From: Nitrospirota bacterium
GTDB taxonomy: Bacteria; Nitrospirota; Thermodesulfovibrionia; UBA6902; DSMQ01
Assembly (NCBI GenBank): GCA_016208965.1
Contig: JACQXB010000006.1
Coordinates: forward strand, 58,262-122,261
Reading direction: 5' to 3'
Length of the DNA stretch: 64,000 bases
The notes below the pieces were generated by a model that was not told the origin of the DNA, ran no database searches, and was given only the letters and a program-made list of their open reading frames with translations. The position numbers were made by a program, and so were the translations under genes. Shown here piece by piece: positions 1 through 45,046 of this stretch. Within the stretch, counting starts at the first letter, position 1. Every line of letters starts with the position of its first letter.

Positions 1-655
1 CAGCCAAAAGTGTCGCTCCTCCTTCTCCAGAATAAATCCTTTTGTTATTAGAATTAAACTCATGTTTGACATCTACCAAAAGGTTCTCAATGGATAAAAT
101 TTTCCAGTGACGGCACCTATAGATATTTTTTATACCTTTTCCCCCATCAATAAAAATCTCAAGGGAAAGAATAAAGTGGTGCGCGTCATGAATAACTTTA
201 AAATCTTCAGAAGGCGAAAAAAAGAAACTTCTTTGGGTAGAATCAATGTTTTTGATATTATATGTCTTGCACTCTAAATATTGATACTCCCCTTTAAATT
301 GAAAAATAATATCTGGATACCCCATGGATTTCTTTTTCTTCTCTTTTCCTGTTGGTGTAGCTGGTTCTAATCCTTGTTCATTCATAGTGTTTTTTACAAA
401 AGGTTCAATATAATTTCCAACCTCATTAGGTCTATCACTTTCTATTCCGTTTGTACTAATCCTTTTAGCACTTTCCACTGCAACAAGTTTTAGTTTTTCG
501 AGTAGCTCTTTATCATACGGAACTGATAAATCAAATGGAATTACCTTGCAACCAGAGAGACTTTCGATAACTAAATTAAAAGGAATGTCCTTCAATGGTG
601 TGAGCATCTGCTTGATAACATTTCCTAATCTAACGACGTAATCTTTATCAGCCAT
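1..655 (-). CDS. Putative type II restriction endonuclease, PD-(D/E)xK-like (partial; gene runs off window start)
   Basis: Minus-strand ATG at 655 directly abuts the stop of the upstream MTase (656-658). Translation MADKDYVVRLGNVIKQ...GYPDIIFQF...EYQYLECKT carries a PD...ExK-like signature. No stop before position 1. Confidence 0.5.
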   Translation of the reverse strand, partial: MADKDYVVRLGNVIKQMLTPLKDIPFNLVIESLSGCKVIPFDLSVPYDKELLEKLKLVAVESAKRISTNGIESDRPNEVGNYIEPFVKNTMNEQGLEPATPTGKEKKKKSMGYPDIIFQFKGEYQYLECKTYNIKNIDSTQRSFFFSPSEDFKVIHDAHHFILSLEIFIDGGKGIKNIYRCRHWKILSIENLLVDVKHEFNSNNKRIYSGEGGATLLA

Positions 656-1945
656 TTATTTTACCTTTCTGAAGATAAGGATATTCTCTTTTTTCATTAC
701 ATTATAAAGCCCAAAAATAAGTTTCAAAATATTTCTCTCCAACTTAAAACCAAGCCCTGTCATATAATCAACAGTAAATTCTACCGTCTTTACTTCTTGC
801 CCCTGATAAGTGGCATTACCTATAACAATAACAGCATATTTATTAGGTTTTAAAATCCTATACATTTCGCTATAAGACTTCTTCATGTCGTTGTTATATA
901 ATTCAACTCGTTCTCTTCCTTTTCCACGCACACCGATAAAATCTTCTCTAATTTCATTCAATTTATAACCCATGTCCTCTAATGAGTGAGCATCATTTTC
1001 TATATAATCAAGGGCAATAGAATATGGCGGAGAGGTTATAATTCCATCAATAGAATTATCAGGTAGTTCAGTATTTCTTGAGTCTCCTTCTTTAAGGTTA
1101 ACATTCCCTAATTTTAAATGTAATGTTTCAGTGATTTCTTTATAGTCTTTTACCGAATCTATCATCAGATTCAAATTCTTGATAAATGACTGTTCAAAAG
1201 AACGTCCACGTCTTGATTCATCACTAACTGCCAATAGTCTTGTAAGAGCATAAAAATCTCGTGTATTATTATCTTTAATACCTTCCAAAACTTTGTAAAA
1301 ATCCTGTTCTTGATTGAAGAGAGATGGTTTGATTTTAGATATTAGAACATTTTTTGATTTTGTAATTTCATCTATTGCATAGACAGAGTTTGTTTTTACT
1401 TTACCTTGCAATACACATAAAGGAGAAATATCAATTCCTATAAAATTTATCCCTAATAGCTGTGCTTCCAACGCAGTTGTTCCACTTCCAGAAAATGGTT
1501 CAAATACGGTATCGCCTTCTTTTAGCCCGATGATATTTAGTAATGCTCTAATCATCTGAGGATGGAATTTGCCCTTATACGGATAAACCCAGTGAGTTAA
1601 ATATTGATTTACAGACCGTGTTCTGTTTTTTTGGATGATTTGAAAATAGTCAGTAAAATTTTTCCCAACAGACTTAAGGTAAGATGATTTTTTTATTATT
1701 TTTTCATTTAGCTCATTTGATTTATTATTTAATTTAAATTCTCTCAGTCCATTGGTAACTTCATAATCAGCCCCGAAAGCCCTCAATTCCAATTCTGCCA
1801 ATGACAGCTCATAAATAAACTGAACATTGTCTAACAAAGTTAAGTCAGCGTCTTTTGAATAACTAAAATCATAAGCCCAAAACTGACTTGCATCTTCAGC
1901 TCTTTCTAACATTATTTCACCCTTACGATTTGCAATAGTTGTCAA
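656..1945 (-). CDS. DNA amino-methyltransferase (N6A/N4C class) of an R-M pair
   Basis: 429 aa. Motif I FEPFSGSGTT precedes motif IV ITSPPYS. Tightly coupled to the downstream nuclease ORF. Confidence 0.85.
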   Translation of the reverse strand: MTTIANRKGEIMLERAEDASQFWAYDFSYSKDADLTLLDNVQFIYELSLAELELRAFGADYEVTNGLREFKLNNKSNELNEKIIKKSSYLKSVGKNFTDYFQIIQKNRTRSVNQYLTHWVYPYKGKFHPQMIRALLNIIGLKEGDTVFEPFSGSGTTALEAQLLGINFIGIDISPLCVLQGKVKTNSVYAIDEITKSKNVLISKIKPSLFNQEQDFYKVLEGIKDNNTRDFYALTRLLAVSDESRRGRSFEQSFIKNLNLMIDSVKDYKEITETLHLKLGNVNLKEGDSRNTELPDNSIDGIITSPPYSIALDYIENDAHSLEDMGYKLNEIREDFIGVRGKGRERVELYNNDMKKSYSEMYRILKPNKYAVIVIGNATYQGQEVKTVEFTVDYMTGLGFKLERNILKLIFGLYNVMKKENILIFRKVK

Positions 1946-1948
1946 TTA

Positions 1949-2200
1949 TTACCTCCCTCTTGCAAGCCCCTCAATTAGATAAGGCGGCAGTCCTGCCTCC
2001 CGCATCTTCTTTTGTATAGATACTATATCATAAGGTACCCTCTTTATTTCTATGGAATTTTGGGTGAGTATTGCGTATGAAGCATCAGGGTTATGGTCGC
2101 GGGGCTGTCCAACACTACCTACATTTGCTATATACCTGCATCTATCTTTAATATCGGCATAATCTTTGTAAACCGTTATCTTACCATCTGAACTCAGCAA
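1949..2200 (-). pseudogene. Orphan duplicated 3' fragment of the metallophosphoesterase gene
   Basis: The 83-aa ORF is ~85% identical to the C-terminus of ORF 6221..7039. DNA 1950-2076 is near-identical to 6221-6347, then diverges. Confidence 0.7.
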
Positions 2201-2261
2201 GCGTCTCCAGATAGCGTTTATCCTGTTCTAATGTCTTTTTCTGATATTCTTTTAGTTCCAT
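2181..2261 (-). pseudogene. Truncated helicase-like gene start (MELKEYQKKTLEQDKRY...), 26-aa remnant
   Basis: Minus-strand ATG at 2261. The same 5' sequence recurs at 3481-3582. The ORF runs into the phosphoesterase fragment and stops. Confidence 0.3.
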
Positions 2262-2293
2262 TTTTTATCTCAGCCAATTTCTGTGAACTGTGT

Positions 2294-3328
2294 TCAATTC
2301 TTTGCTTCCAGCATTAACTGCGCTCTTTGAATTGCTTTGTGTAATTTTTCAGCAAATAGTTCCTTTGGTGGTAATTTGGTTAAATATCCTGCTACTTTTA
2401 TTCTGTCTTCTGGCAAAAATAGTAACTCAATATGCTCCTTGCCTTTTTCTGCACAGAGGATTAGCCCTACAGGCGGGTTTTCACCTGCAAGCATTTCGTA
2501 TTTTTCTATGTATCTTAAATAAAGCTCCATCTGTCCTTTGTATTCTGCTTTGAATTTACCAAGTTTCAGGTCAATTACAACAAAACACTTCAATCTCCTA
2601 TGATAAAAAAGCAAATCAATGTAGTAGTCCTCGTTATCAATGGTAATTCTTTTCTGTCTTGCTACAAAGTAGAAATCTTTGCCTAACTCAATAATAAATT
2701 TTTCCAAAGCATTTAATATTGCCTTTTCCAAATCCTTCTCACTATAAGTATCACTGAGTTCTAAAAAGTCAAGGACATAAGGATCCCTAAAGACTAATTC
2801 AGGAGTTATCTTATCTTCTTCTTTCAATTCTTTTAATTGCTTTTCAATTGTCTTTTCCGGTAATTTTGAGAGGGCTGTTCTTTCATAGAGCATGCTATTT
2901 ATCCTATCTTGTAAAGTGCGGACGCTCTAGCGTTCCTTCTGGCAGAGAGTGGAGTAAAACCGGTGTTTCAAATCATCTTTGATAGGTAAAAGTATCCTTA
3001 TGTGTGTCCAACTCAACCCTTTGAATTCTCCACGCAGTGCGTGGAGAATTGGATAAGTTTCATAAAACTGGATCATAAACCATAAGTTTCGTGCAGAGAA
3101 AGATTTGCCATATTGGGCGATTAATAGTGAACTCAGTGAGTTCACTATCTTTTCACCATATTCAGCCCTGTCTGATTTTATTATTTCCTCTTTTATAGTT
3201 TTTCCAATATTCCAGTAAAGGATTACCATCTCCTGATTGATAGTAGCAGCAACCTTTTTTCTTGCCTGTTCAATTAAAACGGAGATTTTATCAAAAAGAC
3301 CTTTACTTTTCACAATTTTGCTCATCAA
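2294..3328 (-). pseudogene. DUF1016/YhcG-family PD-(D/E)xK nuclease with a single in-frame TAG (2927-2929)
   Basis: ORFs 2927..3328 (YhcG N-domain: ILYWNIGK, LSWTHIRILL, FYSTL) and 2294..2893 (nuclease core: IDLLFYH...VVIDLK) are in the same frame. The intervening codons read SVRTLQDRINS, so the stop sits where the family normally has Trp. Confidence 0.7.
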
Positions 3329-3444
3329 TCAATCCTTTGCCGATAAATCGGCACATTAGCAAAAGCACAAATAGCCTTGAGATATTCACCCCGCCAGTTG
3401 GATTTGAATTCAACATTTTGCGATTCAACTGATTTTAAAGCCAT
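3325..3444 (-). pseudogene. AlbA_2/Schlafen-like N-terminal fragment (39 aa)
   Basis: Minus-strand translation MALKSVESQNVEFKSNWRGEYLKAICAFANVPIYRQRID carries an EFK...ICAFAN signature. It ends in ATGA overlapping the DUF1016 start. Confidence 0.3.
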
Positions 3445-3480
3445 ATTTCCTTTCTCTCCCCTCGTCATGTAATCTTTGCC

Positions 3481-3582
3481 TCAATATCCAAACCGTGAGT
3501 TCAGGATTTGATCAACGGCAAGACAATCGAGATAAACCTTGACCTGTTCCAATGTCTTTTTCTGATATTCTTTAAGTTCCAT
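3481..3582 (-). pseudogene. Second truncated helicase-like gene start (MELKEYQKKTLEQVKVYLDCL...)
   Basis: 33-aa remnant. First ~40 nt duplicate those at 2225-2261. Confidence 0.3.
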
Positions 3583-3642
3583 TATTGTTCCTTAATGAAT
3601 TTCAATCCCTGTTCTTTAAAAAACTCAAAAAGGTCAATGTAT

Positions 3643-4071
3643 TTAATCTGGTATTTTAGTTTTATTGGGGTCGTCTTTTTCCTGAGTAATAATAGTAGTT
3701 CCTTTTGCTTGAGCCAAAGCAATTAAAAATGGGTCGGCGTCAGGTTCACCCGTTTGTAATTTCTTCTTATCGGGCAAATCAGGAAAATCCTTTATAATGT
3801 CTTTTGCAAATTGAAATATTTCAGGATTAGTTGAAATAAAAAAGCGTTTTTTATGCGCCACAGCCCATTTTTTTAACCTGTCATCTTTACCCAAGTATCT
3901 CATTATTTCCTCATACACAACATTTGTTGAGAACATATTTTTCTGCTTAATAAGAACTCCTATTTCATCCCAGATAGCCTTAAAGGTAGGATTATTCTGA
4001 GGATAAAAATTTATCAAGGTTATCAAAACATTTGTGTCAACGACGTATTTATCCCCAAAAGGCAATTCCAT
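3643..4071 (-). CDS. DUF4411-family (PIN-like) protein
   Basis: 142 aa, begins YVVDTNVLI. Sits 3 bp downstream of the HTH-ImmA gene, giving a two-gene module. Confidence 0.6.
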   Translation of the reverse strand: MELPFGDKYVVDTNVLITLINFYPQNNPTFKAIWDEIGVLIKQKNMFSTNVVYEEIMRYLGKDDRLKKWAVAHKKRFFISTNPEIFQFAKDIIKDFPDLPDKKKLQTGEPDADPFLIALAQAKGTTIITQEKDDPNKTKIPD

Positions 4072-4074
4072 AAC

Positions 4075-5217
4075 TTATATCGCTTCTTTAACTTTTGATA
4101 TTTTATCTAACGTTACCCCGAGATAATCAGCGGCACTTATATTATCAATCTTATTCTGTTCATAAGCTCCGAAGACCATAGAAACATATTTTTTACCTCT
4201 TTCCTGTATGCAAATCTTGATTTCATTTTTTTTGCCTCTTCCGCCGAAAGGCTCTTTATATTTACTCTTCCATTCTTCATGTTTACTGTGATAATATTCC
4301 TTCGTAGTTAAACCCAAAATTAATAATCTTCTTAATATGACCTCGGGGCTAACCTTGAAATCTTGTGCAATATCTTTTAGAATGTGGTCAGGCCATTCTT
4401 TCAGTTTCTCATTTGCTTTAACAATAGGATGATTTAATAATTTATCTTTCGGGGCTAAAAATGCTCCTGCAAAACGGTTACAAAATCTTTCTATATTTTG
4501 TGTCTCGTCTTCTTTCAAATCACAGATACCACCTTCTCTTAAAAGCAAATGAGCAAATTCATGGAAAAGTGTAAAAATCTTTGCAGATGGCTCATCAGAC
4601 CTTTTTAGAATAACAACCGGAACATCTTCATCAACTAAAGAAAGCCCTCTTATTTCCTTGTTTTGTGTAATGCTAATCTGAAAAACTAATATCCCGTTTT
4701 TTTCTAATATTTTTATCCACTCCTCTAAAGCGGTGTCTGTAGTAAATGAAACAGGGAACCCCTTAACACCTAATTGTCCTCTAATCTTTTCTGCAAGTTC
4801 TTCCGGATTATCCGATAAACTTGCCCTTAATGATAGTTTCTGAATTGGCTCGTCCAATTCTTTCATTAACTCAATAGTAGAATATTGAAAACGCCTTGCC
4901 TTTCTGATAGCCAAATGTGTTTTAGGATGAAGTGGCTTCTTTTTTTCGGAAGGAAGTGTCCGGTAATCAGTAGGAAAAGACGGTTCTTTTGGTGGGGTGG
5001 GTAATAAGAATGCTGTTATGGGTCTCTTGTAAATAAAGGCTAACCTTTCAAGTTGTGAAAAGGTGGGGTTTGCTTTACCTTTCTCCCAATTCTCTATAGT
5101 AGTTGTTGTTATTTTCTTTATTTCCTTAACAACATCCTTTGGCTCCATTCCAATACTTTCCCGTGCCCATATAAGAACTTCTGGTTCTATTGAAACGGCA
5201 AATGATTTATCAGGCAT
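4075..5217 (-). CDS. XRE-type HTH fused to ImmA/IrrE-family zinc metallopeptidase
   Basis: 380 aa. N-terminal HTH region, then HEFAHLLL HExxH motif followed by GICD. Confidence 0.75.
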   Translation of the reverse strand: MPDKSFAVSIEPEVLIWARESIGMEPKDVVKEIKKITTTTIENWEKGKANPTFSQLERLAFIYKRPITAFLLPTPPKEPSFPTDYRTLPSEKKKPLHPKTHLAIRKARRFQYSTIELMKELDEPIQKLSLRASLSDNPEELAEKIRGQLGVKGFPVSFTTDTALEEWIKILEKNGILVFQISITQNKEIRGLSLVDEDVPVVILKRSDEPSAKIFTLFHEFAHLLLREGGICDLKEDETQNIERFCNRFAGAFLAPKDKLLNHPIVKANEKLKEWPDHILKDIAQDFKVSPEVILRRLLILGLTTKEYYHSKHEEWKSKYKEPFGGRGKKNEIKICIQERGKKYVSMVFGAYEQNKIDNISAADYLGVTLDKISKVKEAI

Positions 5218-34765: not shown

Positions 34766-35605
34766 ATGTTTAAAATCTTATATAAACAAACGCTCGCTCC
34801 AAAGATTGACATGATGGTGATAAGTGCCCCCTACATTGCAAGACATGCAAAGGCTGGAAACTTTGTTGTAATAAGGCTTAATAAAAAAGGAGAAAGGATT
34901 CCGCTCACCATTGCTGATGCTGATGTGGGAAATGGAACTATTACATTACTCTTTCAGAAAGTAGGTAAGACTACAGAAGCACTGGGGATGTTAAAACGAG
35001 GTGGTTTTATCAGGGATATTGCAGGACCACTTGGACATCCTACGCCAATAACGAAGTATGGGGATTGCGTCCTTGTAGCAGGAGGTGTCGGGGGCGCTAC
35101 ACTCTATCCTATTATCAAGGCTTTGAAGGAAACAGGTAATAATATAACATTCATTATGGGAGCTCGTTCAAAGGAATATTTGATTTGGGAGGAGAAATTT
35201 AAAAAAATTGCAGACGAGTGTATTGTTACCACAGATGATGGAAGTTATGGCAGGAAAGGATTGGTTACTGATGTACTGAAAGAGGTCATCCAGAATAAAC
35301 CTATTGCAATTGTAGTTGCTGTTGGACCTGTAAGGATGATGAAAGCAGTTTCTGAGCTTACAAAACCTTATGGGATAAAAACTATTGTGAGCCTAAATCC
35401 ATTAATGGTAGAAGGAACAGGCATGTGTGGCGCTTGCAGGGTAAATATCGCTGGGAAGACAATGTTTGCTTGTATTGATGGTCCTGAATTTGATGGGCAT
35501 GAGGTGGATTTTCAGGTGCTTGAAAATCGTCTTGGGTTTTATAAAGAAGAAGAAGAGAAGGCTTATAAGTTGTTTTTGAATAAACCACGTAAAGGCAAGC
35601 CTTAA
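34766..35605 (+). CDS. NfnA/SudB-like FAD/NAD-binding electron-transfer subunit (PyrK-like)
   Basis: 279 aa with C-terminal [2Fe-2S] motif CGACRV...C. Confidence 0.75.
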   Translation: MFKILYKQTLAPKIDMMVISAPYIARHAKAGNFVVIRLNKKGERIPLTIADADVGNGTITLLFQKVGKTTEALGMLKRGGFIRDIAGPLGHPTPITKYGDCVLVAGGVGGATLYPIIKALKETGNNITFIMGARSKEYLIWEEKFKKIADECIVTTDDGSYGRKGLVTDVLKEVIQNKPIAIVVAVGPVRMMKAVSELTKPYGIKTIVSLNPLMVEGTGMCGACRVNIAGKTMFACIDGPEFDGHEVDFQVLENRLGFYKEEEEKAYKLFLNKPRKGKP

Positions 35606-35691
35606 AAAGGATTATTAAGATAAGCCATGAAAGATTTGATCCCGCAGCAAGCTATTGCACAAAGGATTTTTTGATAAGACATCAAAAGGTC

Positions 35692-35922
35692 ATGATAGAC
35701 AGGGACCTTGCTGAACTATACGGAGTGGAAACCAAGCACCTTAACAGACAGGTAAGGCGCAATATCCAGAGATTTCCTGAAGAATTCATGTTTCAGCTTA
35801 CCATTGAAGAACGGAATAAACTGGTGACAATTTGTCACCGGTTCAAAACAATGAAACACTCAATGACTCCACCTGAACCAAAACGCAAAAGAATTGGATT
35901 TCTTAGGGAAAAAGAGAAATAA
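35692..35922 (+). CDS. ORF6N-domain (KilA-N-like) protein, probably truncated
   Basis: MIDRDLAELYGVETKHLNRQVRRNIQRFPEEFMFQLT. Confidence 0.55.
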   Translation: MIDRDLAELYGVETKHLNRQVRRNIQRFPEEFMFQLTIEERNKLVTICHRFKTMKHSMTPPEPKRKRIGFLREKEK

Positions 35923-36328
35923 TAGCGAAGTTTAAATAGAAATATGCCAGCAAAGAAAAAAGATAATTTAGAAAAAGAGAAACTCCTTGCTGAGATTGAG
36001 CGGTTAAAGAAGGAATTAAAGAAAAGAAAGAACGAATGATAGAAATGGAGCTAAAACTGTTAAAATTAAAAGGCAGAAAATAAGAGGACAAAAACTGCAA
36101 CTTGAGGGAGATGTAATACAATGATGTCTAAAGAAGATTTGATAAGTAATATCCTCTCTATCCCTTCTGATGAAAGAAGTTATTTATTTACCACAGATAA
36201 AAGTAAATAAAATGGAAATCCTTATTTTACAAGCAGTTTGGCTGAGTTTATTTTCCTGCAGGAAGAATAAGAGGCTGAACAGTAAGGCAATATGAACAAC
36301 AAAAACCAAAAACTCAAACTCACGTGGA

Positions 36329-36553
36329 TTGGCAGGGAGAATTAGACGAGGTGAAAAAATAGCACAGCGTGCACTTCTCTTTGGCGCAGATGATTTAAAC
36401 GGCACAGTCATAGAGGAAAAAATTACCCATTCTGCAGGCGCGCTTTCAGACAATACAATGACAAGGGCTGAACTGGTGAATTTAATAAAAAAGGCAGGCA
36501 AGGTGCCGGTGGAGAGGGATTCGTTTTATAGACCGGTAAAAAGATTTCCTTAA
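36329..36553 (+). pseudogene. C-terminal fragment of a radical-SAM MqnC/MqnE/CofH-like gene
   Basis: 74 aa reading GADDLNGTVIEEKITHSAGA...RAELVNLIKKAGKVPVERDSFY, a typical C-terminus of this family. No N-terminal part upstream. Confidence 0.5.
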
Positions 36554-36686
36554 TTGACATCTTTTGCCGTAAATTGGTATAAAATCATTGGATGGGAAAT
36601 GGCTTTTAGTTCAATAATAATCCTCTATGGTATAATTAAAGTATAAATATCTTGTCACCGATATACTATGTAACGGTATATTCAAC

Positions 36687-37259
36687 ATGATAGAGACCTC
36701 CACCATAATCGAAGCATTGTGCTATATCCTCAAGAAATTAAAAAAAGCAGATAAAATCAAACTCGTCAAGCTGATATACCTTGCCGACAAGTACCATCTC
36801 ATCCGCTATGGAAGAACTATAACAAATGATGATTACTACGCAATGGAACATGGGCCAGTAGGTGCAACCGTTAAGGATGTCCTCAGCTTTGACCATTTTA
36901 ATATTCCCCCAAAAACATTCAAATATCTCTCAACCTTAATAGTCAAGGTTGATGAGAATCATTTTAGAGTAAATCCTGATGCGAAAATTACCTTCGATAT
37001 GCTGTCAGATACCGATAAGGAAGCCCTTGATTTTATTATTGAAAAATTTGGCGGTATGAATTCATGGCAATTAAGAAATTATACGCAGCAGTATCCTGAA
37101 TGGTATCAATATGAAGATATGCTCAAAAGCAGGCTTACAAAAAGAGAGCGGATTGATACAAAGGAATTATTATATACAACAAGAAAAAATGACATTCTAC
37201 GTATGCCCCGCAAACACGTCAAAGAGTCAGAAAAAATTCTGACAGGTAAATTTGACTGA
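36687..37259 (+). CDS. Panacea-domain (DUF4065, SocA-like) antitoxin candidate
   Basis: LVKLIYLADKYHLIRYGRTITNDDYYAMEHGPV... matches the DUF4065 N-terminal pattern. Confidence 0.65.
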   Translation: MIETSTIIEALCYILKKLKKADKIKLVKLIYLADKYHLIRYGRTITNDDYYAMEHGPVGATVKDVLSFDHFNIPPKTFKYLSTLIVKVDENHFRVNPDAKITFDMLSDTDKEALDFIIEKFGGMNSWQLRNYTQQYPEWYQYEDMLKSRLTKRERIDTKELLYTTRKNDILRMPRKHVKESEKILTGKFD

Positions 37260-37261
37260 TT

Positions 37262-37708
37262 GTGGACTTCCCGCCGAATTATATTGCTAAAACTTTATCA
37301 GGCTTCTGTGTATGCTACTTCAAAAATACAACTCATGACCCCGAAGCGCCGCCACATTATCATATAACTGTCCCTATTAGTGACGATTCAAGCCTTTTAT
37401 TGTGTATTATTACTTCCCAAGTTGAAAACAAAGCATGGTATTACCATAAAACCAATGAGGAAGCAGAATCATGTCTTGTAAGTGTAGATAAACACGATTT
37501 ACCTTTCTTAAAAAGAAAGAGTTTAATTGATTGCAATCAACCGGTACTCATACACAAAAACAAGTTTAGCAAAATAATTGACCCTGACCATAAATTTGAA
37601 GTTGTAACTCGAAATATTCCAAAAGAAATCAAAAAGAAAATCGTTAAAGCAATAAAAGACAGCCCGATTGTGAAACCTTTTATTAAGAAGCTTATAAAGT
37701 TTCCTTAG
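37262..37708 (+). CDS. Hypothetical protein, candidate toxin partner of the Panacea antitoxin
   Basis: 148 aa, starts 3 bp after the DUF4065 stop. No recognisable motifs. Lys-rich C-terminus. Confidence 0.4.
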   Translation: MDFPPNYIAKTLSGFCVCYFKNTTHDPEAPPHYHITVPISDDSSLLLCIITSQVENKAWYYHKTNEEAESCLVSVDKHDLPFLKRKSLIDCNQPVLIHKNKFSKIIDPDHKFEVVTRNIPKEIKKKIVKAIKDSPIVKPFIKKLIKFP

Positions 37709-37813
37709 GAAGAATTAATCACTAAACAGAGTAGTCATATATTTGTTATAATCTTTGAAAATTAGAAAAGTTCTCTATCCGAGAATTATCATGCTCATCA
37801 ATGAGAGGATAAA

Positions 37814-39808
37814 TTGAATAAATCTGACTACAAAACTCCAGAAGAAAGAATCGGCACTGATGAAATCTTTGACATGGTCTTTAGGGATTCATCGGTGAAA
37901 TATGGCTTGCAGGAGTTTTCTAAGGATATCTTAAAAAGAATAAGTGCTTTTGAAAAAGAAGATGGTAGGTTTTATATACGTTGCTTAAAAAGAGATAAAG
38001 ACATTTTTGTTTATGACAGAAATAAAAAAATGGGTAAGCCGGAAGAAGTTATTCGCCAGCTCTGGCTTATAAAGCTAACCAAAGAATATAAATATCCTCT
38101 TGACAGAATAGAAGTTGAGAAATCAGTTCACTTTGGCAGAGAAATTAGAGAAAAATCAGCAGATATTGTTTTATATAAAGAAGACAAAATCACGCCGTAC
38201 ATCGTTTTTGAACTGAAGCAGCCTAATGCCAAGAAAGCAGAAGAACAACTGAAATCATATCTAAGCGCTGAAGGTGCAGAAGGCGGAGTCTGGTCTAATG
38301 GTATTGAGAAATTCATACTTTACCGCCCTTATCCAAAAGAATATATTACTGTCCTGTCAGACATTCCTAATGTTAATCAGACATGGGATGACCTTTTTGA
38401 AGAAAAGTGGACTTATGGTGACCTGAAGGACAAGTTTGATCTTTCTTTTATTATTTCCCGACTTGAGGAAATGGTTTTAGCACAGGCAGGCGTAAATGTA
38501 TTTGAGGAAGTTTTCAAGTTAATCTATGCCAAGCTATATGATGAAGACCAGGCAAAAGATGTACGGACAAAAGAAGAAGTTCATTTCAGACAGTATAAAG
38601 ACCCAAAGAAAACCTATGTAATTATAAATGATGAGCTTTTCAAAGGAGCAATTGATGAATGGCAAGGGATTTTTAATCCATTATCAAAAATTGATTTAAC
38701 TCCTGAACAGTTACAGATATGTGTTCCTTTTCTGGAAAAAGTTAAATTTTTTGACTCTGGAAGAGAGGAATTGGAGATAATTGACCGTGCCTTTGAGCAT
38801 TTGATTGCTGAGGTTTCAAAGGGTCAAAAAGGACAATACTTTACACCCCGCAACGTTATTAAGATGTGTGTCAAAATGCTTAATCCTAAGAAAGATGAAT
38901 ATATCATTGACCCTGCCTGTGGTTCGGGAGGATTCTTGCTTCACACTATGTATTGGGTTTGGGATAATGATTTAAAATCTGTCTCCTTTTCAGCAAAACA
39001 AAAATATGCTAATCGCTATCTCTATGGAATTGATTTTGATGATAATATGCGCCGGATTTCTCAGGCATTGATGCTAATTGCCGGTGATGGCAGGCATAAT
39101 ATCTTTAAACGCAATGCATTAGATGGAAGGGACTGGATAGGGGAACAGGCAGAGGAAGCACGGACACAGTTGAAACCATTATTAGCCAGACAATACGAGG
39201 AAAACCGCAAGACTTATCGTTATCTTAATTTTGACTTATTGATGACTAATCCTCCATTTGCAGGCGAGATTACTGATTCAGGCTTACTGCGTCAATATGA
39301 GTTTGCAAAGAAGAATGGAAAACTCAAACAGAAAGTAGAACGACACCTACTTTTCATAGAACGTTCCTTAGATGCACTCTGTCCAGGCGGAAGAATGGCG
39401 ATAGTCTTACCCCAGGGAATTTATAATAATACAAATATGGAATGGCTGAGGCTCTGGCTTTTTGAAAAGGCACGAATCCTTGCAGTGGTCGGTTTGGAAG
39501 GAAATACCTTTAAGCTCCCAGCTCCTGCAAAAGGCACAGGGACAAAGACATCTGTTTTATTTCTGCGTAAATGGGATGAAGATGAAAAGCCTTTAGAAGA
39601 TTATCCTATTTTTATGGCAGTGTCTAAAAAATCAGGTAAGGACAATTCAGGAGAGTATGTATATCTTAACGAGAAAGGGCACAGGATAAAATCAGAGGGT
39701 GGCATCTTTGAATCACATGAGAATTTAAGGCTTGATGACGATTTAGATGAAATTGCAGACGAATTTGTAAAGTTTGCAAAAAAAGAGAAATTTATGTGGT
39801 GGAGATAG
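37814..39808 (+). CDS. R-M enzyme A subunit: N-terminal HsdR_N-like PD-(D/E)xK nuclease fused to gamma-class N6-adenine MTase (BcgI-A-like)
   Basis: 664 aa. N-terminal KSADIVLYKEDKITPYIVFELKQP (D...ELK), then motif I IIDPACGSGGFLL and motif IV LLMTNPPFAG. No helicase motifs. Confidence 0.7.
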   Translation: MNKSDYKTPEERIGTDEIFDMVFRDSSVKYGLQEFSKDILKRISAFEKEDGRFYIRCLKRDKDIFVYDRNKKMGKPEEVIRQLWLIKLTKEYKYPLDRIEVEKSVHFGREIREKSADIVLYKEDKITPYIVFELKQPNAKKAEEQLKSYLSAEGAEGGVWSNGIEKFILYRPYPKEYITVLSDIPNVNQTWDDLFEEKWTYGDLKDKFDLSFIISRLEEMVLAQAGVNVFEEVFKLIYAKLYDEDQAKDVRTKEEVHFRQYKDPKKTYVIINDELFKGAIDEWQGIFNPLSKIDLTPEQLQICVPFLEKVKFFDSGREELEIIDRAFEHLIAEVSKGQKGQYFTPRNVIKMCVKMLNPKKDEYIIDPACGSGGFLLHTMYWVWDNDLKSVSFSAKQKYANRYLYGIDFDDNMRRISQALMLIAGDGRHNIFKRNALDGRDWIGEQAEEARTQLKPLLARQYEENRKTYRYLNFDLLMTNPPFAGEITDSGLLRQYEFAKKNGKLKQKVERHLLFIERSLDALCPGGRMAIVLPQGIYNNTNMEWLRLWLFEKARILAVVGLEGNTFKLPAPAKGTGTKTSVLFLRKWDEDEKPLEDYPIFMAVSKKSGKDNSGEYVYLNEKGHRIKSEGGIFESHENLRLDDDLDEIADEFVKFAKKEKFMWWR

Positions 39809-39811
39809 AAC

Positions 39812-40591
39812 ATGTTATTTTTTATAGATGAAAGTTGGCAATCAACTCAGGATGGCAAATACAAAGTCGGAGTGTTATCGGCGATTCAAATAAAAAGTCA
39901 TGATTTTAATGAGTGCTCCAAGCAGATATATGAACTTAAAATTAAAAATTTAGGATACCGTGCTGGAGATTTAGAAATTAAGGGAAGAGAAATTTTAAGA
40001 AACTATCTTTTTGAACTTGAGTCAAAAGGCATAAAATCAAAAGAACTAAATCTCGTTAGAGATATTCTTACCTATATGCAGACTTTAGGTATAAAACTTT
40101 TTGCTTCTATTGTATTCTCAAAAAAGGAAATTGATTTGGCTTGTGCTAATGTAAATCAACTTGAAAGACCATTTTTCTTTTTATTTGAACGCATAGATTT
40201 ATTTATGAAGGAAAATTATCCAGGACTTATGGCTAAGTTAATCTTTGATGATAGAGGGATACAATTCAATAAAAAAATATCAAAAAGTGTGAGTAATTTC
40301 TTCCATAAAAGTAGCATTGGCCAGGAGTTTGATACTATTATTAAAGTTCCTTTCTTTGCAATCTCCACAGAGAATGTAGGAATACAAATGGCAGATATAG
40401 TTGCTCATATTTTGGGTAGCAGATTTACAGGAGATAAAAAACAAATAGAATTTTTCAAGAAAGTTAAAAGTCTTGAGTTTATAAGCAGAACTCTTGTTGA
40501 TATAAGAGGAAAAATGTTACAACTCCTTGGATTTAAAGTAGTAAAAGAGAAAGAGGCTGGCGATTTATTCAGTCCGGGAAGAACTGTATAA
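39812..40591 (+). CDS. DUF3800-family protein embedded in the R-M operon
   Basis: 259 aa starting MLFFIDESWQ, the DUF3800 N-terminal signature. 3 bp after the A subunit stop and 100 bp before the S subunit. Confidence 0.6.
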   Translation: MLFFIDESWQSTQDGKYKVGVLSAIQIKSHDFNECSKQIYELKIKNLGYRAGDLEIKGREILRNYLFELESKGIKSKELNLVRDILTYMQTLGIKLFASIVFSKKEIDLACANVNQLERPFFFLFERIDLFMKENYPGLMAKLIFDDRGIQFNKKISKSVSNFFHKSSIGQEFDTIIKVPFFAISTENVGIQMADIVAHILGSRFTGDKKQIEFFKKVKSLEFISRTLVDIRGKMLQLLGFKVVKEKEAGDLFSPGRTV

Positions 40592-40691
40592 AACTATAAG
40601 AAAGCTTGAAAGCTCCCTACCAGCCTCAAACTTATTATAGCTTATGTTAGGGTAAAAATCAATAAATTTTAGCGGGTGAAATTTTAAAGAA

Positions 40692-42038
40692 ATGGTCACT
40701 TATTCAATCATTAAGAAATCTCAAATTGAGGGCATATATCGGCTGGATGCTGAGTATTATCAGCCAGAATATTTATCTTTAATGAAATCTTTAAAAATAA
40801 TACCAAATGTTGAATTAAACTCCCTTGCTTTTGTGACTGACGGAATTCACTCCTCAATCGATTATGATAATAAAAGTAACATCAGGTGTTTATCTGCACA
40901 ATCTGTACAAGATAACTATTTTGATTTATCAGCAAATACTTTTATTTCAGAAGATCAACATAAAGTTAATTTAAGGACAAGTCTAAAAGTAGGAGATGCT
41001 ATACTTTCATCTGTAGGAACAATCGGTAATTGTGCCGTTATAACAGATAGTATTCTACCAGCAAATGCAGACCGCCATGTAGCAATAATAAGGTTATCTG
41101 CCAATAAACTATCACCGTATTTCTTATCGGTATTTTTAAATTCTAAATACGGAAGATTTCAAACCTTAAGAGAATCTACAGGGAATGTTCAACCTAATTT
41201 ATTTATCGATAAAATCAAAAAACTGATAATTCCAACGATAAAAAACCACAGAGAGATTAGCGAATTGGCTGAAAAATCTAACGATATGATACTTGCTGCT
41301 AATTTGCTTTACTCCCAAGCCGAAAATCTGTTTTTAGAAGAATTAGGATTGAAGAATTTTAAACCACAAGAGAACTTGTCCTATGTTGTTAATCTCTCTG
41401 ATGTAAAATCCGCTCGCCGTGCCGATGCCGAATATTTCCAGCCGAAGTATAAAAGGATGGTTGAGAAAATCAAAAAACACAATTTGAGTCTACTTGGCGA
41501 TCCGGTTACAATGAAGAAAGGATTCGAGCCGGGAAGCAACGAATATCAAGATAAAGGAAAACTATTTATTCGCGTGAGCAGCATTTCAAAACATGGAATA
41601 ATTGATAAAGACCAGAAATATTTAAGTGGAGAATTGTATCAAAAATTAAGAAAAGATTTTGAGCCAAAAATTGGTGAGATATTACTGACTAAAGACGCAA
41701 CGCCCGGCATTGCCTATGTATTGAAAGAGGCTATTGAAGGAGTTGTGGCAAGCGGCATTATGCGTTTAAAACTTAAAGAGAATATTGAAGCGGAGTATTT
41801 GACTCTCTGCATCAATTCTATTGTCGGTCAAATGCAGATTGAACGTGATGCAGGCGGTTCAATAATTGCGCATTGGAAGCCAGAACAAATTAAGAACTTA
41901 CAACTCCCTATATTCCCTAAACCAACTCAGCAAAAAATCGCTGACTTAGTCCGTCAGTCCCATGAGGCAAGAAAAAAGGCAAAAGAACTCTTGGAAGAAG
42001 CAAAAAGAAAAGTTGAGGAGGAAATTGAAAATAATTAA
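40692..42038 (+). CDS. R-M specificity subunit (HsdS-like, two TRDs)
   Basis: 448 aa with conserved HsdS repeats LPIPPL...KIADLV / QQKIADLVRQ. Confidence 0.8.
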   Translation: MVTYSIIKKSQIEGIYRLDAEYYQPEYLSLMKSLKIIPNVELNSLAFVTDGIHSSIDYDNKSNIRCLSAQSVQDNYFDLSANTFISEDQHKVNLRTSLKVGDAILSSVGTIGNCAVITDSILPANADRHVAIIRLSANKLSPYFLSVFLNSKYGRFQTLRESTGNVQPNLFIDKIKKLIIPTIKNHREISELAEKSNDMILAANLLYSQAENLFLEELGLKNFKPQENLSYVVNLSDVKSARRADAEYFQPKYKRMVEKIKKHNLSLLGDPVTMKKGFEPGSNEYQDKGKLFIRVSSISKHGIIDKDQKYLSGELYQKLRKDFEPKIGEILLTKDATPGIAYVLKEAIEGVVASGIMRLKLKENIEAEYLTLCINSIVGQMQIERDAGGSIIAHWKPEQIKNLQLPIFPKPTQQKIADLVRQSHEARKKAKELLEEAKRKVEEEIENN

Positions 42039-42044
42039 TTAACC

Positions 42045-42612
42045 ACGACATCAAATACAGTTTTATAAAAATTGTCCTTGAATACCCAGTAGCTTTGCTA
42101 CTGGGATGAAAAGGACATCCTGACGAATAGTCAGGATAGTTTTTTGTTAAAATACGGGCATGAGCCCATTGAGGAGAAGCAAGCACTGTGTATATGACCT
42201 GAAGTACCATTTTGTATGGATACCAAAGTATCGGAAGGAAGTATTGAAGAGTAGGGTAGCAAGTAGGATGAGGGAGATATTTGGGGAGATAGCGGAGCAA
42301 TATGAGATTGAGATAGATACGATGGAAGTAATGGATGATCATGTGCATTTGTTTTTGTCTGTGCCACCGAAGTATTCTCCTGCAGTAGTAGTACAACGAA
42401 TAAAGAGTATATCTGCGAAGATAATATTCCGAGAATTTCCAGAGATAAAGAAGAGCCTTTGGGGTGGTGAGCTTTGGAATGACGGATACTTTGTACGTTC
42501 TGTTGGCGATAAAGTAACAGCCGAAGTAATCCGTAAATACATTAAATATCAGCATAATGAACAAATTGGTTTTGAGTTTTAATGCCCCGCAGTTCTACTG
42601 CGGGGTTCTTTA
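42045..42612 (+). mobile_element. IS200/IS605-family insertion sequence (tnpA only)
   Basis: TnpA at 42160..42582 has HuH motif HVHLFL and a Y1 transposase fold. Subterminal hairpins cccagtagctttgctactggg, cctgacgaatagtcagg and ccccgcagttctactgcgggg. Confidence 0.8.
42160..42582 (+). CDS. tnpA: IS200/IS605 transposase TnpA
   Basis: 140 aa reading MSPLRRSKHCVYDLKYHFVWIPKYR...HVHLFL. Confidence 0.9.
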   Translation: MSPLRRSKHCVYDLKYHFVWIPKYRKEVLKSRVASRMREIFGEIAEQYEIEIDTMEVMDDHVHLFLSVPPKYSPAVVVQRIKSISAKIIFREFPEIKKSLWGGELWNDGYFVRSVGDKVTAEVIRKYIKYQHNEQIGFEF

Positions 42613-42692
42613 CTTAATTGTTTAATTACATCAAGAGCGAAAATAAGAAGGGCAAAAAACTTTTTGGTGGAATAGTCGCAAACTCTGACCCA

Positions 42693-42789
42693 AGAAATTA
42701 TTGCGGAAGATGGGTTTGCTTTGATAAGACAAGCAAAGAATTAAAAGATAATGATTTTAGTAATTGGAAGAATTTGGAGCTTTAATTTG
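42693..42789. repeat. Direct repeat copy 1 flanking the ParE-type TA cassette
   Basis: gaaattattgcggaagatgggtttgctttgataagacaagcaaagaattaaaagataatgattttagtaattggaagaatttggagctttaat is ~85% identical to 43491-43586. Confidence 0.8.
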
Positions 42790-42889
42790 TTTACAACATC
42801 ACCTACCGCCTGCCTGTCGGCAGACATGGCATGGGGCGGGATAGCGAGGATGAGAAATTTAGTATAATATATAAAAAGGAGGTAGCGTT

Positions 42890-43111
42890 ATGGGAACTAT
42901 TAGCAATGAACTTGTAGCAAAAATTAAATCTTTGCCGGACAACGAAAAGATAGAGCTGGTAGATTCTATCTTAATTCAGCTTGACAAGCCTGACCCTGAA
43001 ATTGACCGTGTTTGGGTAGAGGAGGCTCGCAAACGCTGGCAAGCATACAAAATGGGCAAAGTTGAGACTGTGTCTTATGAGCAGGTAATGGACAAGTATC
43101 GCACCAGATGA
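42890..43111 (+). CDS. Putative addiction-module antitoxin
   Basis: 73 aa. Overlaps the downstream ParE-like gene by 4 bp. Confidence 0.55.
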   Translation: MGTISNELVAKIKSLPDNEKIELVDSILIQLDKPDPEIDRVWVEEARKRWQAYKMGKVETVSYEQVMDKYRTR

Positions 43112-43419
43112 AAGTTCGTTTTTTAAAACCTGCGCAGTCGGAAGTTAACGATACCTTTGCATGGTATGATGCCCATTCACACAGCCTCGGCGTACAATTC
43201 TTGGATGATCTTGACCGTGCAGTCAGAAGAATTGTGGCATATCCCCTTGCAAACACAATAATTGAAGATGGTTTTCGGCGTTGTCTTTTATCAAGATTCC
43301 CTTATGGAATAATTTATGGCCTTGATGCTGAAACTGTTATTGTCATCGCAGTAGCCCATCTGCACAGAGAGCCGCGATATTGGATTGACAGACTGCTTGA
43401 ACAGAAAATCAATCTGTAA
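43108..43419 (+). CDS. RelE/ParE-family toxin
   Basis: 103 aa reading ...FPYGIIYGLDAETVIVIAVAHLHREPRYW. Confidence 0.6.
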   Translation: MKVRFLKPAQSEVNDTFAWYDAHSHSLGVQFLDDLDRAVRRIVAYPLANTIIEDGFRRCLLSRFPYGIIYGLDAETVIVIAVAHLHREPRYWIDRLLEQKINL

Positions 43420-43490
43420 CGACAACATGATTCGACCATGTGCTGGCAAAGCACTGTGGCTTCACAGCCGAGGATCTAGACTTCATCCCA

Positions 43491-43586
43491 GAGAAATTAT
43501 CGTGGCAGATGGATTTATTTTGATAAGCCGAAAAAAGATTTAAAAGATAATGATTTTGGTAATTGGAAGAATTTGGAGATTTAACC
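43491..43586. repeat. Direct repeat copy 2
   Basis: gaaattatcgtggcagatggatttattttgataagccgaaaaaagatttaaaagataatgattttggtaattggaagaatttggagatttaacc. Confidence 0.8.
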
Positions 43587-43633
43587 CGCTTGACTATCTA
43601 TCAAGTAACGAGGTTAAGAGGATTTGTTAAAAA

Positions 43634-45046
43634 ATGAGATATAGAACACCCCAAAAAAGAATAAAGGACTTTAAAGAAGTCGCCCTTGGGCTGACTGAAA
43701 GACAGGCAGTTAAAGAGGCAAATCGTTGTCTTCAATGCAGAAAACCAAAATGTGTTGAGGGCTGTCCTGTTGAGATTGATATTCCAAAGTTTATAGCGAT
43801 TGTAAAAGAGGGAGATTATCTAAGCGGGCTCAAAAAGATAAAAGAGTCAAATAACCTTCCTGCAATCTGCGGCAGGGTGTGCCCACAAGAGACACAGTGT
43901 GAAGGTAAGTGCATATTGAGGAAAAAAAGCAGGCCTGTCTCAATAGGGGCACTTGAGAGATTTGTGGCTGATTATGGGGTATCGTTAGGTCCTATGGAAT
44001 CGCCTAAGGTAAATCCTCCAAATGGGCATAAGGTTGCAGTTATTGGCTCAGGGCCAGCAGGGCTTACAGTAGCCTCAGACCTTGCAAGGCTTGGATATAA
44101 TACTACAGTCTTTGAGGCGCTTCACGAACCAGGTGGTGTGCTCCTCTATGGTATTCCTGAATTCAGGCTTCCAAAGAAAATCCTTCAAAGAGAGATTGAT
44201 TATGTCCGCAGCCTCGGGGTAAAGATTGTAGTTAATTGGTTAATAGGAAGAACACAGACAGCAGAGGAGCTTTTAGAGGATGGTTTTGAGGCAATTTTTA
44301 TTGGAGTTGGCGCTGGTTCCCCGAAGTACATGGGCATATTAGGTGAAAACCTGAACAATGTTTATTTTGCATCAGAGTTTCTAACAAGAGTTAATCTTAT
44401 GAAGGCTTATGACTTTCCTAAATATGATACCCCTGTTAAAAAGGCACAGAAAGTTGCTGTCATCGGGGGGGGCAATGTTGCAATGGATTCAGCAAGGACG
44501 GCATTAAGGCTCGGTGCAGAGAAGGTGTATGTGATTTATAGAAGAACCGAAAAAGAGATGCCCTCAAGACATGAGGAGGTTGAAAATGCAAAGGAAGAAG
44601 GCATAGAGTTCCATTTTCTCTCGGACCCGAGGACGGTGCTTGGAGATGAAAGGGGCTGGGTGCGCAGCGTTGAATGTGAACGGATGAGATTGGGTGAGTC
44701 TGATACATCAGGAAGAAGAACCCCTGAACCTACAGGTGAGAGATTCTGTATTGAAGTTGACCAGGTGATAGTTGCAATCGGTCAAAGTGCAAACCCAATA
44801 CTTGTCAACTCAATTAAAGGGCTGAATCTTTGGGGCAATGGTTATATCGTAGTAGATAAAGAAGGTAGGACGAATCTTGAGAGGATATTTGCAGGTGGCG
44901 ATATTACAACAGGCGCTGCTACTGTGATAAGTGCCATGGGTGCAGGGAAAAGGGCTGCGAGGGCAATTGATAATTTTATTATGAGGAGGAGAGAATCTCT
45001 CCAACAATCTCCTGAACCTGCTTTGAGTCAGAATAAGCCTCAATAA
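43634..45046 (+). CDS. NfnB/SudA/GltD-like NAD(P)H-dependent FAD/Fe-S oxidoreductase subunit
   Basis: 470 aa with Cys clusters CLQCRKPKCVEGCPV and VAVIGSGPAGL. Confidence 0.85.
   Translation: MRYRTPQKRIKDFKEVALGLTERQAVKEANRCLQCRKPKCVEGCPVEIDIPKFIAIVKEGDYLSGLKKIKESNNLPAICGRVCPQETQCEGKCILRKKSRPVSIGALERFVADYGVSLGPMESPKVNPPNGHKVAVIGSGPAGLTVASDLARLGYNTTVFEALHEPGGVLLYGIPEFRLPKKILQREIDYVRSLGVKIVVNWLIGRTQTAEELLEDGFEAIFIGVGAGSPKYMGILGENLNNVYFASEFLTRVNLMKAYDFPKYDTPVKKAQKVAVIGGGNVAMDSARTALRLGAEKVYVIYRRTEKEMPSRHEEVENAKEEGIEFHFLSDPRTVLGDERGWVRSVECERMRLGESDTSGRRTPEPTGERFCIEVDQVIVAIGQSANPILVNSIKGLNLWGNGYIVVDKEGRTNLERIFAGGDITTGAATVISAMGAGKRAARAIDNFIMRRRESLQQSPEPALSQNKPQ

Follow-up and report, generated by a model that had tools for sequence, protein, structure and literature searches.

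The panA-panT gene pair

We analyzed a 64,000-nucleotide stretch of DNA from a Nitrospirota bacterium (contig JACQXB010000006.1 of assembly GCA_016208965.1, positions 58,262 to 122,261; hereafter, the window) and focused on two adjacent open reading frames (ORFs) at 36687-37708, here designated panA and panT. From the gene sequences and a structure model, we consider it likely that this locus is a type II PanAT toxin-antitoxin (TA) module whose toxin, PanT, is predicted to be a MazF-fold endoribonuclease. The two genes and their parts are listed below, with gene products measured in amino acids (aa) and distances in nucleotides (nt).

36687-37259, + strand: panA, 190-aa Panacea (DUF4065) antitoxin candidate, ATG start
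36762-37106, + strand: Panacea domain core, PanA residues 26-140 (Pfam envelope)
37107-37256, + strand: C-terminal extension of PanA, residues 141-190, with the conserved tail ...RERI.T.ELL....DP...P.KH.KES.KILTG.F
37257-37264, + strand: coupling junction TGA-tt-GTG (panA stop codon at 37257-37259, 2 nt, panT GTG at 37262)
37262-37708, + strand: panT, 148-aa MazF/PemK-fold toxin candidate, GTG start
37301-37660, + strand: MazF-like core, PanT residues about 14-133 (from the secondary structure of the model and the sub-threshold PemK_toxin matches of relatives)
37661-37705, + strand: family-specific C-terminal helix, S134-P135 ... K142, SPIVKPFIKKLIK, with an invariant Ser and a model helix at 139-144

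A previous reading of this DNA, made from the letters alone and referred to here as the sequence-only reading, had proposed a DUF4065 antitoxin gene followed, after a 3-bp gap, by an unrecognisable partner. Both ORFs were found where it had placed them on the + strand, and the gap was corrected to 2 nt (junction TGAttGTG). The identity of the upstream gene was confirmed, as PanA matched Pfam SocA_Panacea PF13274 over the entire 113-position profile (E = 9.2e-23, 81.8 bits, residues 26-140). It also matched PHROG 1281 (E = 3e-23).

The junction was compared with those of 24 other pair-bearing loci, in which the gap between panA and panT ranged from -8 to +7 nt. The start codon of panT in these loci was mostly GTG (19/24), as in the window, with ATG in four and TTG in one; this conserved GTG is one of the distinctive features of the family. 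The median pairwise ratio of nonsynonymous to synonymous substitution (dN/dS) was 0.09 for panT and 0.08 for panA, at a dS of about 1-1.8. Both genes are under purifying selection.

Predicted fold and conserved residues of PanT

The sequence-only reading had seen no known motif in the downstream ORF. This held for the profile databases, where nothing exceeded the threshold: the window PanT had no Pfam or PADLOC match and no PHROGs match above threshold. Its single NCBIfam match, ICE_Mbov_0400, scored 20.9 bits (cutoff, 55); this profile matched 2 of 75 family members and was judged to be noise. Structure prediction, which that reading had suggested as a check, indicated a MazF/PemK fold and thus removed the description of the partner as unrecognisable. 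The AlphaFold2 model of PanT, calculated from 35 family members, had a mean predicted local distance difference test (pLDDT) score of 92.7 and a predicted template modelling (pTM) score of 0.86. When the model was compared with the Protein Data Bank (PDB) using Foldseek, ranks 1-17 were all MazF, and MazF and type III toxins were the sole matches through rank 24. Comparison with viral models returned a 'PemK-like protein' and an 'Endoribonuclease', and MazF scored above CcdB in both fold searches. On this model, PanT is firmly predicted to be a strongly diverged SH3-like barrel protein of the MazF/PemK fold (MazF/PemK/CcdB).

The strands of the model comprise residues 16-20, 32-37, 44-51, 72-75, 87-98, and 113-116, followed by the canonical C-terminal helix at 121-133. 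Three elements are added to the MazF core, namely an N-terminal helix (5-11), a helical insertion (54-71), and a terminal helix (139-144).

We examined residue conservation among 75 diverse family members. H32, C91, and S134 were invariant (75/75), and F20, T51, S52, and N92 were conserved in at least 91% of the members; position 51 was Thr in 68 and Ser in six. The sequence 'ITSQ', which closes strand 3 of PanT, parallels 'CTTQ' of E. coli MazF, in which Thr52 is catalytic (counterpart Thr48 in B. subtilis MazF). In MazF-bs and MazF-sth, an Arg in the loop before strand 2 and a Thr after strand 3 are essential (PMC10893535). When PanT was mapped onto MazF by motif, secondary structure, and Pfam register, rather than by superposition, T51-S52 fell after strand 3 at the place of the catalytic Thr, and H32, which opens strand 2, fell at the place of the catalytic Arg. 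C91-N92 lie on the strand corresponding to the RNA-base-reading strand of MazF. We infer from the alignment and the model that the active site of PanT may lie at the MazF location with an altered catalytic set.

The same 75 members were scanned individually against Pfam. PemK_toxin (PF02452) was the sole family that recurred, with sub-threshold matches in 15 of the 75 at E ≤ 1 (best E, 0.0011). Ten members scanned one by one scored 12.8-16.1 bits, below the gathering score of 23.1 bits. The register was consistent, residues about 42-111 aligning with profile positions 32-92 of 109 (4 of 10 relatives inspected), and the matches span the ITSQ and S.IDCN motifs.

Distribution of the PanT family

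Close homologues of PanT numbered 61, with identities of 44-100%; nearly all were 146-151 aa long and came mostly from metagenome-assembled genomes (MAGs) of Nitrospirota and Nitrospinota. A full search with the hidden Markov model (HMM) of the family retrieved 542 clusters (50% identity) at E ≤ 1e-3 and 196 at E ≤ 1e-10. The family extends over Nitrospirota, Nitrospinota, anammox Planctomycetes (including a Ca. Anammoxibacter member), Elusimicrobiota, and a Thermotogae virus. It is almost wholly metagenomic, and none of the 20 representatives sampled had a RefSeq entry. Searches of PLSDB plasmids by tblastn with PanT and three divergent relatives, and of INPHARED phages by tblastn with PanT, gave no match. 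Homologues of fixed length, the 542 clusters, low dN/dS, and kept synteny show that panT is a genuine gene, not a chance ORF.

Conservation and mobility of the pair

The surroundings of panT homologues were examined in 20 GTDB genomes, of which 18 had a genuine match, and in roughly a dozen contigs from metagenomes, together with a single IMG/VR contig and a single phage genome. In every locus (about 30), a homologous Panacea gene ended between -8 and +17 nt from the panT start, although the identity of PanT itself ranged from 100% down to 25%. The neighbourhoods of the pair were unrelated to one another and included a type I restriction-modification (RM) island, Usp/TauE genes, an MqsR-MqsA-SecB cluster with an integrase, cobalamin genes, and a temperate virus, Marinitoga camini virus 1. 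The proposal that the same pair should be sought elsewhere was thus borne out, and panAT is an obligate syntenic, mobile unit. The conserved bicistronic arrangement, with the Panacea gene always first, also supports the earlier suggestion of an antitoxin-first pair with a toxin candidate downstream.

Two of the loci are viral:

KP836355.1 28057-29155 (1405-2503 of locus L038), Marinitoga camini virus 1: PanAT pair UF08_38 and UF08_39, both annotated as hypothetical, overlapping by 8 nt
34-4456 of locus L044, IMG/VR contig: PanAT pair, PanA at 3416-3991 and PanT at 3992-4456, GTG start, zero gap

In Marinitoga camini virus 1, the upstream protein of the pair is a Panacea protein (E = 1e-19), and its PanT-like partner scored 59 bits against the family HMM, with an hhalign probability of 97%. 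L044 corresponds to IMGVR_UViG_3300002498_000169, the one uncultivated virus genome retrieved when viral contigs were scanned with the alignment of close family members. Its neighbouring ORFs include one of 651 aa that appears terminase-like by eye from the sequence and a RadC/JAB-like ORF at 2636-3232.

In the MAG JACRHB01 (NC_groundwater_1766), the pair occurs in two diverged copies (loci L024 and L028), whose PanT proteins are 61% and 83% identical to that of the window; two copies in one genome are typical of paralogous TA modules. In six metagenome contigs from the Joint Genome Institute (L005-L010; e.g., 5567-7301 of L005), genes for an MqsR toxin, an MqsA antitoxin, and a SecB-like chaperone adjoin PanAT on the opposite strand. 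This trio resembles a toxin-antitoxin-chaperone arrangement; integrase genes are located nearby, and a 40-aa ORF overlaps the panA start.

The antitoxin candidate PanA

PanA homologues with identities of 25-100% were found directly 5' of each panT homologue examined. Within the Panacea core, the strongest conservation was observed in the block KLVKLIYLADKYHLIRYGRTITNDDYYAMEHGPVG. The 50-residue C-terminal tail beyond the core is still retained in homologues whose identity is as low as about 30%. A structure prediction of PanA from its single sequence was too poor to be used (pLDDT, 36.6).

A natural variant of PanA was found in locus L013 (JACQXG010000038.1, 3600-4447), where residues about 25-80, including the most conserved Panacea block, are lost in frame, whereas residues 81-190 are kept. 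The promoter region of this locus is intact, as is its PanT, which is 83% identical to the window PanT and has all the invariant residues. The deletion might reflect an assembly artefact, or it might indicate that the C-terminal half of PanA suffices for neutralisation. If it is no assembly error, neutralisation would lie in residues 81-190, which would agree with Ernits et al. 2023, who proposed a sensor role for the Panacea core and neutralisation by appended elements (PMC10440598). The C-terminal extension may be the toxin-neutralising element, with the L013 variant as support.

The 5' region of panA

Two promoter-like elements precede panA:

36554-36583, + strand: P1, TTGACA (36554-59), 18-nt spacer, and TGg-TATAAA (36575-83)
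36628-36645, + strand: P2, extended -10 element TGgTATAAT (36628-36636) overlapping the near-palindrome TATGGTATAATTAAAGTATA (36626-36645)

The box TGGTATAA is common to both elements (36575-82 and 36628-35). P1 is conserved 5' of panA across loci whose flanking genes are unrelated, and P2 is the most conserved non-coding block of the 5' region across loci. In total, about 150 nt 5' of panA, containing P1, P2, and the near-palindrome, travels with the pair. A CACCGATA-like box precedes the panA ATG and is also conserved across loci (36554-36670 region). By their sequence, P1 and P2 would serve as promoters, and the near-palindrome at P2 is possibly a putative operator.

Genomic context of the pair

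The surroundings of panAT in the window contain the following features:

34766-35605: NfnA-like gene (DHODB_Fe-S_bind)
35671-35922: ORF6N-domain ORF, 83 aa (profile positions 6-66 of 86)
36329-36553: CofH_C fragment, 74 aa, matching only the C-terminal part of CofH/MqnC
within 37814-42038: type I methyltransferase, 664 aa, with an N-terminal HSDR_N_2 domain
39812-40591: DUF3800 gene, between the M and S genes, with a weak PADLOC PDC-M04A match
40692-42038: specificity subunit S
42160-42582: IS200/IS605-type Y1 transposase (E = 2e-45)
43108-43419: ParE-like toxin ORF (E = 8e-6)
43634-45046: NfnB-like gene (Fer4_20 and Pyr_redox_2)

The GC content drops from about 0.40 to 0.30-0.36 in the stretch from roughly 35.5 to 41.5 kb. 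NfnA-like and NfnB-like genes are normally adjacent; here they are separated by a low-GC segment of about 8 kb (35606-43633), which therefore looks like a mobile or defence island inserted in the operon. The ORF6N and CofH_C ORFs appear to be remnants of genes at the edge of the island. The type I RM-like cluster at 37814-42038 adjoins panAT and has no visible HsdR. The ParE-like ORF had no recognised antitoxin, and the minus-strand ORF overlapping it (42966-43256) had no Pfam match.

Relationship to known toxin-antitoxin systems

The pair shows two of the features that define PanAT systems, namely the Panacea/DUF4065 domain and a same-strand two-gene architecture with a gap of less than 100 nt and a partner conserved across genomes. 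Kurata et al. 2022 (PNAS 119:e2102212119) catalogued the partners of PanA, including the MazF-like PanT clusters T5, T6, T8, and T25 (PMC8832971). As in those systems, the Panacea antitoxin of the window stands alone, lacks an N-terminal domain, and is encoded first, and the toxin gene follows on the same strand within a few nt. This toxin is likewise 'hypothetical', has no CDD or Pfam hit, and is recognized as MazF/PemK-like by sensitive methods only. The patchy, mobile distribution, which includes phages, is also shared.

In the same study, the PanT proteins of Pseudomonas moraviensis (T6) and Bifidobacterium ruminantium (T25) had no CDD hit and were MazF/PemK-like by HHpred only; both were toxic, were neutralised by PanA, and selectively blocked protein synthesis (PMC8832971). 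Stable PanT:PanA complexes were obtained for five pairs, including the MazF-like pair of P. moraviensis (PMC8832971). The members of clusters T5 and T8 are 'hypothetical proteins' that HHpred matches to MazF with probabilities above 99%; their genes are in the A|T order with gaps of a few nt (PMC8832971). The claim of the sequence-only reading that the downstream ORF represents a candidate new toxin family was not upheld in kind, given this precedent, the MazF/PemK/CcdB fold of the model, and the PemK_toxin matches of 15 relatives. At most, PanT would belong to a family of a known kind that is absent from, or poorly covered in, existing catalogues.

We compared the family profile with a T6 member, the pair on plasmid pAOF1 of Acetobacter orientalis FAN1, which was identified by organism, gene order, and its 14-nt gap in the published listing (PMC8832971). 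The match was marginal, covering 116 columns with an hhalign probability of 37.7% (E = 3.4e-4) and 15 bits by hmmsearch; both the conserved His and the C-terminal SP motif fall within the aligned region. By these comparisons, the PanT family appears to be a distant sister of T6 and would form a different cluster at ordinary thresholds. The T8 pairs of Nitrospirae HCH-1 and of Ca. Jettenia have -8 overlaps (PMC8832971). Such overlaps and an anammox member also occur in the PanT family, a circumstantial pointer, as T5 and T8 were compared by description only. Marinitoga camini virus is absent from the dataset of Kurata et al. 2022.

PanT differs from MazF/PemK/Kid proteins (PF02452; e.g., 4MDX of B. 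subtilis, 4MZM of S. aureus, and MazF9 of M. tuberculosis, 6KYS) in having no Pfam match above threshold. Compared with MazF, it has about 35 extra residues, located in the N-terminal helix, the insertion at 54-71, and the C-terminal SP helix, and the catalytic Arg is replaced by the invariant His. Its antitoxin is a Panacea protein, not MazE/PemI (AbrB- or ribbon-helix-helix-type). PanAT also resembles SocAB, the type VI TA system of Caulobacter crescentus, in that a gene for a Panacea-domain antitoxin lies upstream of the toxin gene; however, PanA is not a SocA equivalog, and the predicted fold of the toxin is MazF-like. Unlike the type III systems CptN/ToxN/AbiQ, the locus has no RNA repeat antitoxin, and PanT always occurs with a protein partner.

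Proposed mechanism and alternative explanations

We propose that transcription of panAT probably starts within the conserved 5' region of the pair itself (P1/P2) and that panA would be translated first. PanT would then be translated by coupled re-initiation at TGAttGTG, and its weak GTG start codon should keep the toxin sub-stoichiometric. PanA is predicted to bind and sequester PanT and thereby to keep it inactive, probably through its C-terminal half and the conserved 50-residue tail, while the Panacea core may be a sensor. A trigger, which could be phage infection, loss of the island, or turnover of PanA, would free PanT to act as a ribosome-independent endoribonuclease that arrests translation, and growth would stop. 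The biological role of PanAT would be addiction or abortive infection, and the location of the pair in a low-GC island beside a type I RM cluster fits such a role.

Several observations weigh against this proposal. The window PanT itself did not match PemK_toxin at E ≤ 1. Phmmer and profile searches of PDB sequences with PanT or the family gave no matches or chance matches only, and hhalign comparison of the family profile with E. coli MazF and ChpB gave a probability of 0.1% or less; these null comparisons explain why the sequence-only reading saw no motif. The essential Arg of MazF has no conserved counterpart in PanT, position 32 being His in 75/75 members by register mapping rather than superposition. 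Pfam revealed no recognisable DNA-binding domain in PanA, which leaves autoregulation unexplained. Among the PanT clusters of Kurata et al. 2022, both the toxin and the PanA of the C. bovis pair (T5) were toxic, and the MazF-like PanT of F. xanthum (T8) was non-toxic in E. coli (PMC8832971).

The last result is also consistent with an alternative in which panAT is not a classical growth-arresting TA system. PanT would then be inactive or non-toxic alone, or would be an effector that fires on a phage cue, with PanA as the sensor of a dedicated abortive-infection or defence module. The position of panAT beside type I RM, DUF3800, and other TA genes in the low-GC island, its presence on a temperate virus and an IMG/VR contig, and the natural PanA that lacks the conserved N-terminal half of Panacea beside an intact PanT all agree with this explanation. 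Nothing at the sequence level separates it from the type II reading, and the two overlap, as many TA systems are defence systems. No PADLOC model matched PanA or PanT, and the strong purifying selection on active-site-like residues argues against an inactive PanT. On balance, we regard this non-classical explanation as unlikely, but as the most credible of the alternatives to the type II module.

A PanT that has the MazF/CcdB fold but no RNase activity, and that poisons gyrase like CcdB or acts on another target with PanA as its antitoxin, is improbable. The CcdB fold was outscored by MazF in both fold searches, both the sub-threshold Pfam matches and the Thr-Ser-Gln sequence that follows strand 3 favour PemK/MazF over CcdB, and the validated MazF-like toxins linked to PanA inhibit translation, not replication (PMC8832971). 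A SocAB-like type VI mechanism, in which PanA would act as an adaptor for proteolysis and deliver the toxin to ClpXP instead of sequestering it, is less probable still. SocB binds DnaN, inhibits replication, and is degraded by ClpXP through SocA, the protein in which the Panacea domain was first seen. The antitoxin-first gene order is alike; nevertheless, orthology to SocA/SocB was rejected, as PanA scored 16.9 bits (E = 0.0039) with the NCBIfam SocA equivalog NF047745, whose cutoff is 190. PanT is also predicted to have the MazF fold, and no link to SocB emerged from the searches made, none of which was a direct PanT-SocB comparison. The stable complexes formed by five PanT:PanA pairs are consistent with sequestration of the type II kind (PMC8832971). 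Finally, we give almost no credence to a type III system (ToxIN/CptIN/AbiQ-like) in which the true antitoxin is an RNA and the Panacea gene a bystander. This reading was rejected since no repeat array was detected by panT with TRF and no Rfam match was found; the only repeats in the TRF output were two weak ones at 36006-36045 and 36300-36318. Moreover, panT begins 2 nt after panA, and this close arrangement is invariant across the family.

Within the type II PanAT reading, a more specific picture can be drawn, which we regard as doubtful but possible. PanT would represent a large, strictly Panacea-linked branch of the MazF superfamily that Pfam lacks, comprising 542 or more clusters at 50% identity and characterized by His in place of Arg, an invariant Cys, and the SP helix, and it may differ from known MazFs in catalysis or RNA target. 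The C-terminal half of PanA would restrain it, and the pair would function as a phage- and island-borne abortive-infection unit.

Significance of the PanAT pair

The pair at 36687-37708, with its MazF-like toxin candidate, is most likely of a kind already described and validated for sister families, and does not constitute a new category. The novelty of PanT is limited to a sequence family that Pfam does not model, an apparent replacement of Arg by His in the active site, the extra SP helix, and a suggestive natural deletion in PanA. The deletion in L013 offers a cheap way to probe the proposal of a sensor core and a neutralising tail, and the His-for-Arg set of PanT could inform how RNases of the MazF fold vary their chemistry and specificity. 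PanT is another instance of a Panacea partner that domain databases miss but structure prediction can identify. If the pair is validated, the known MazF-like proteins would gain a large subfamily that is widespread in the environment and has no Pfam model.

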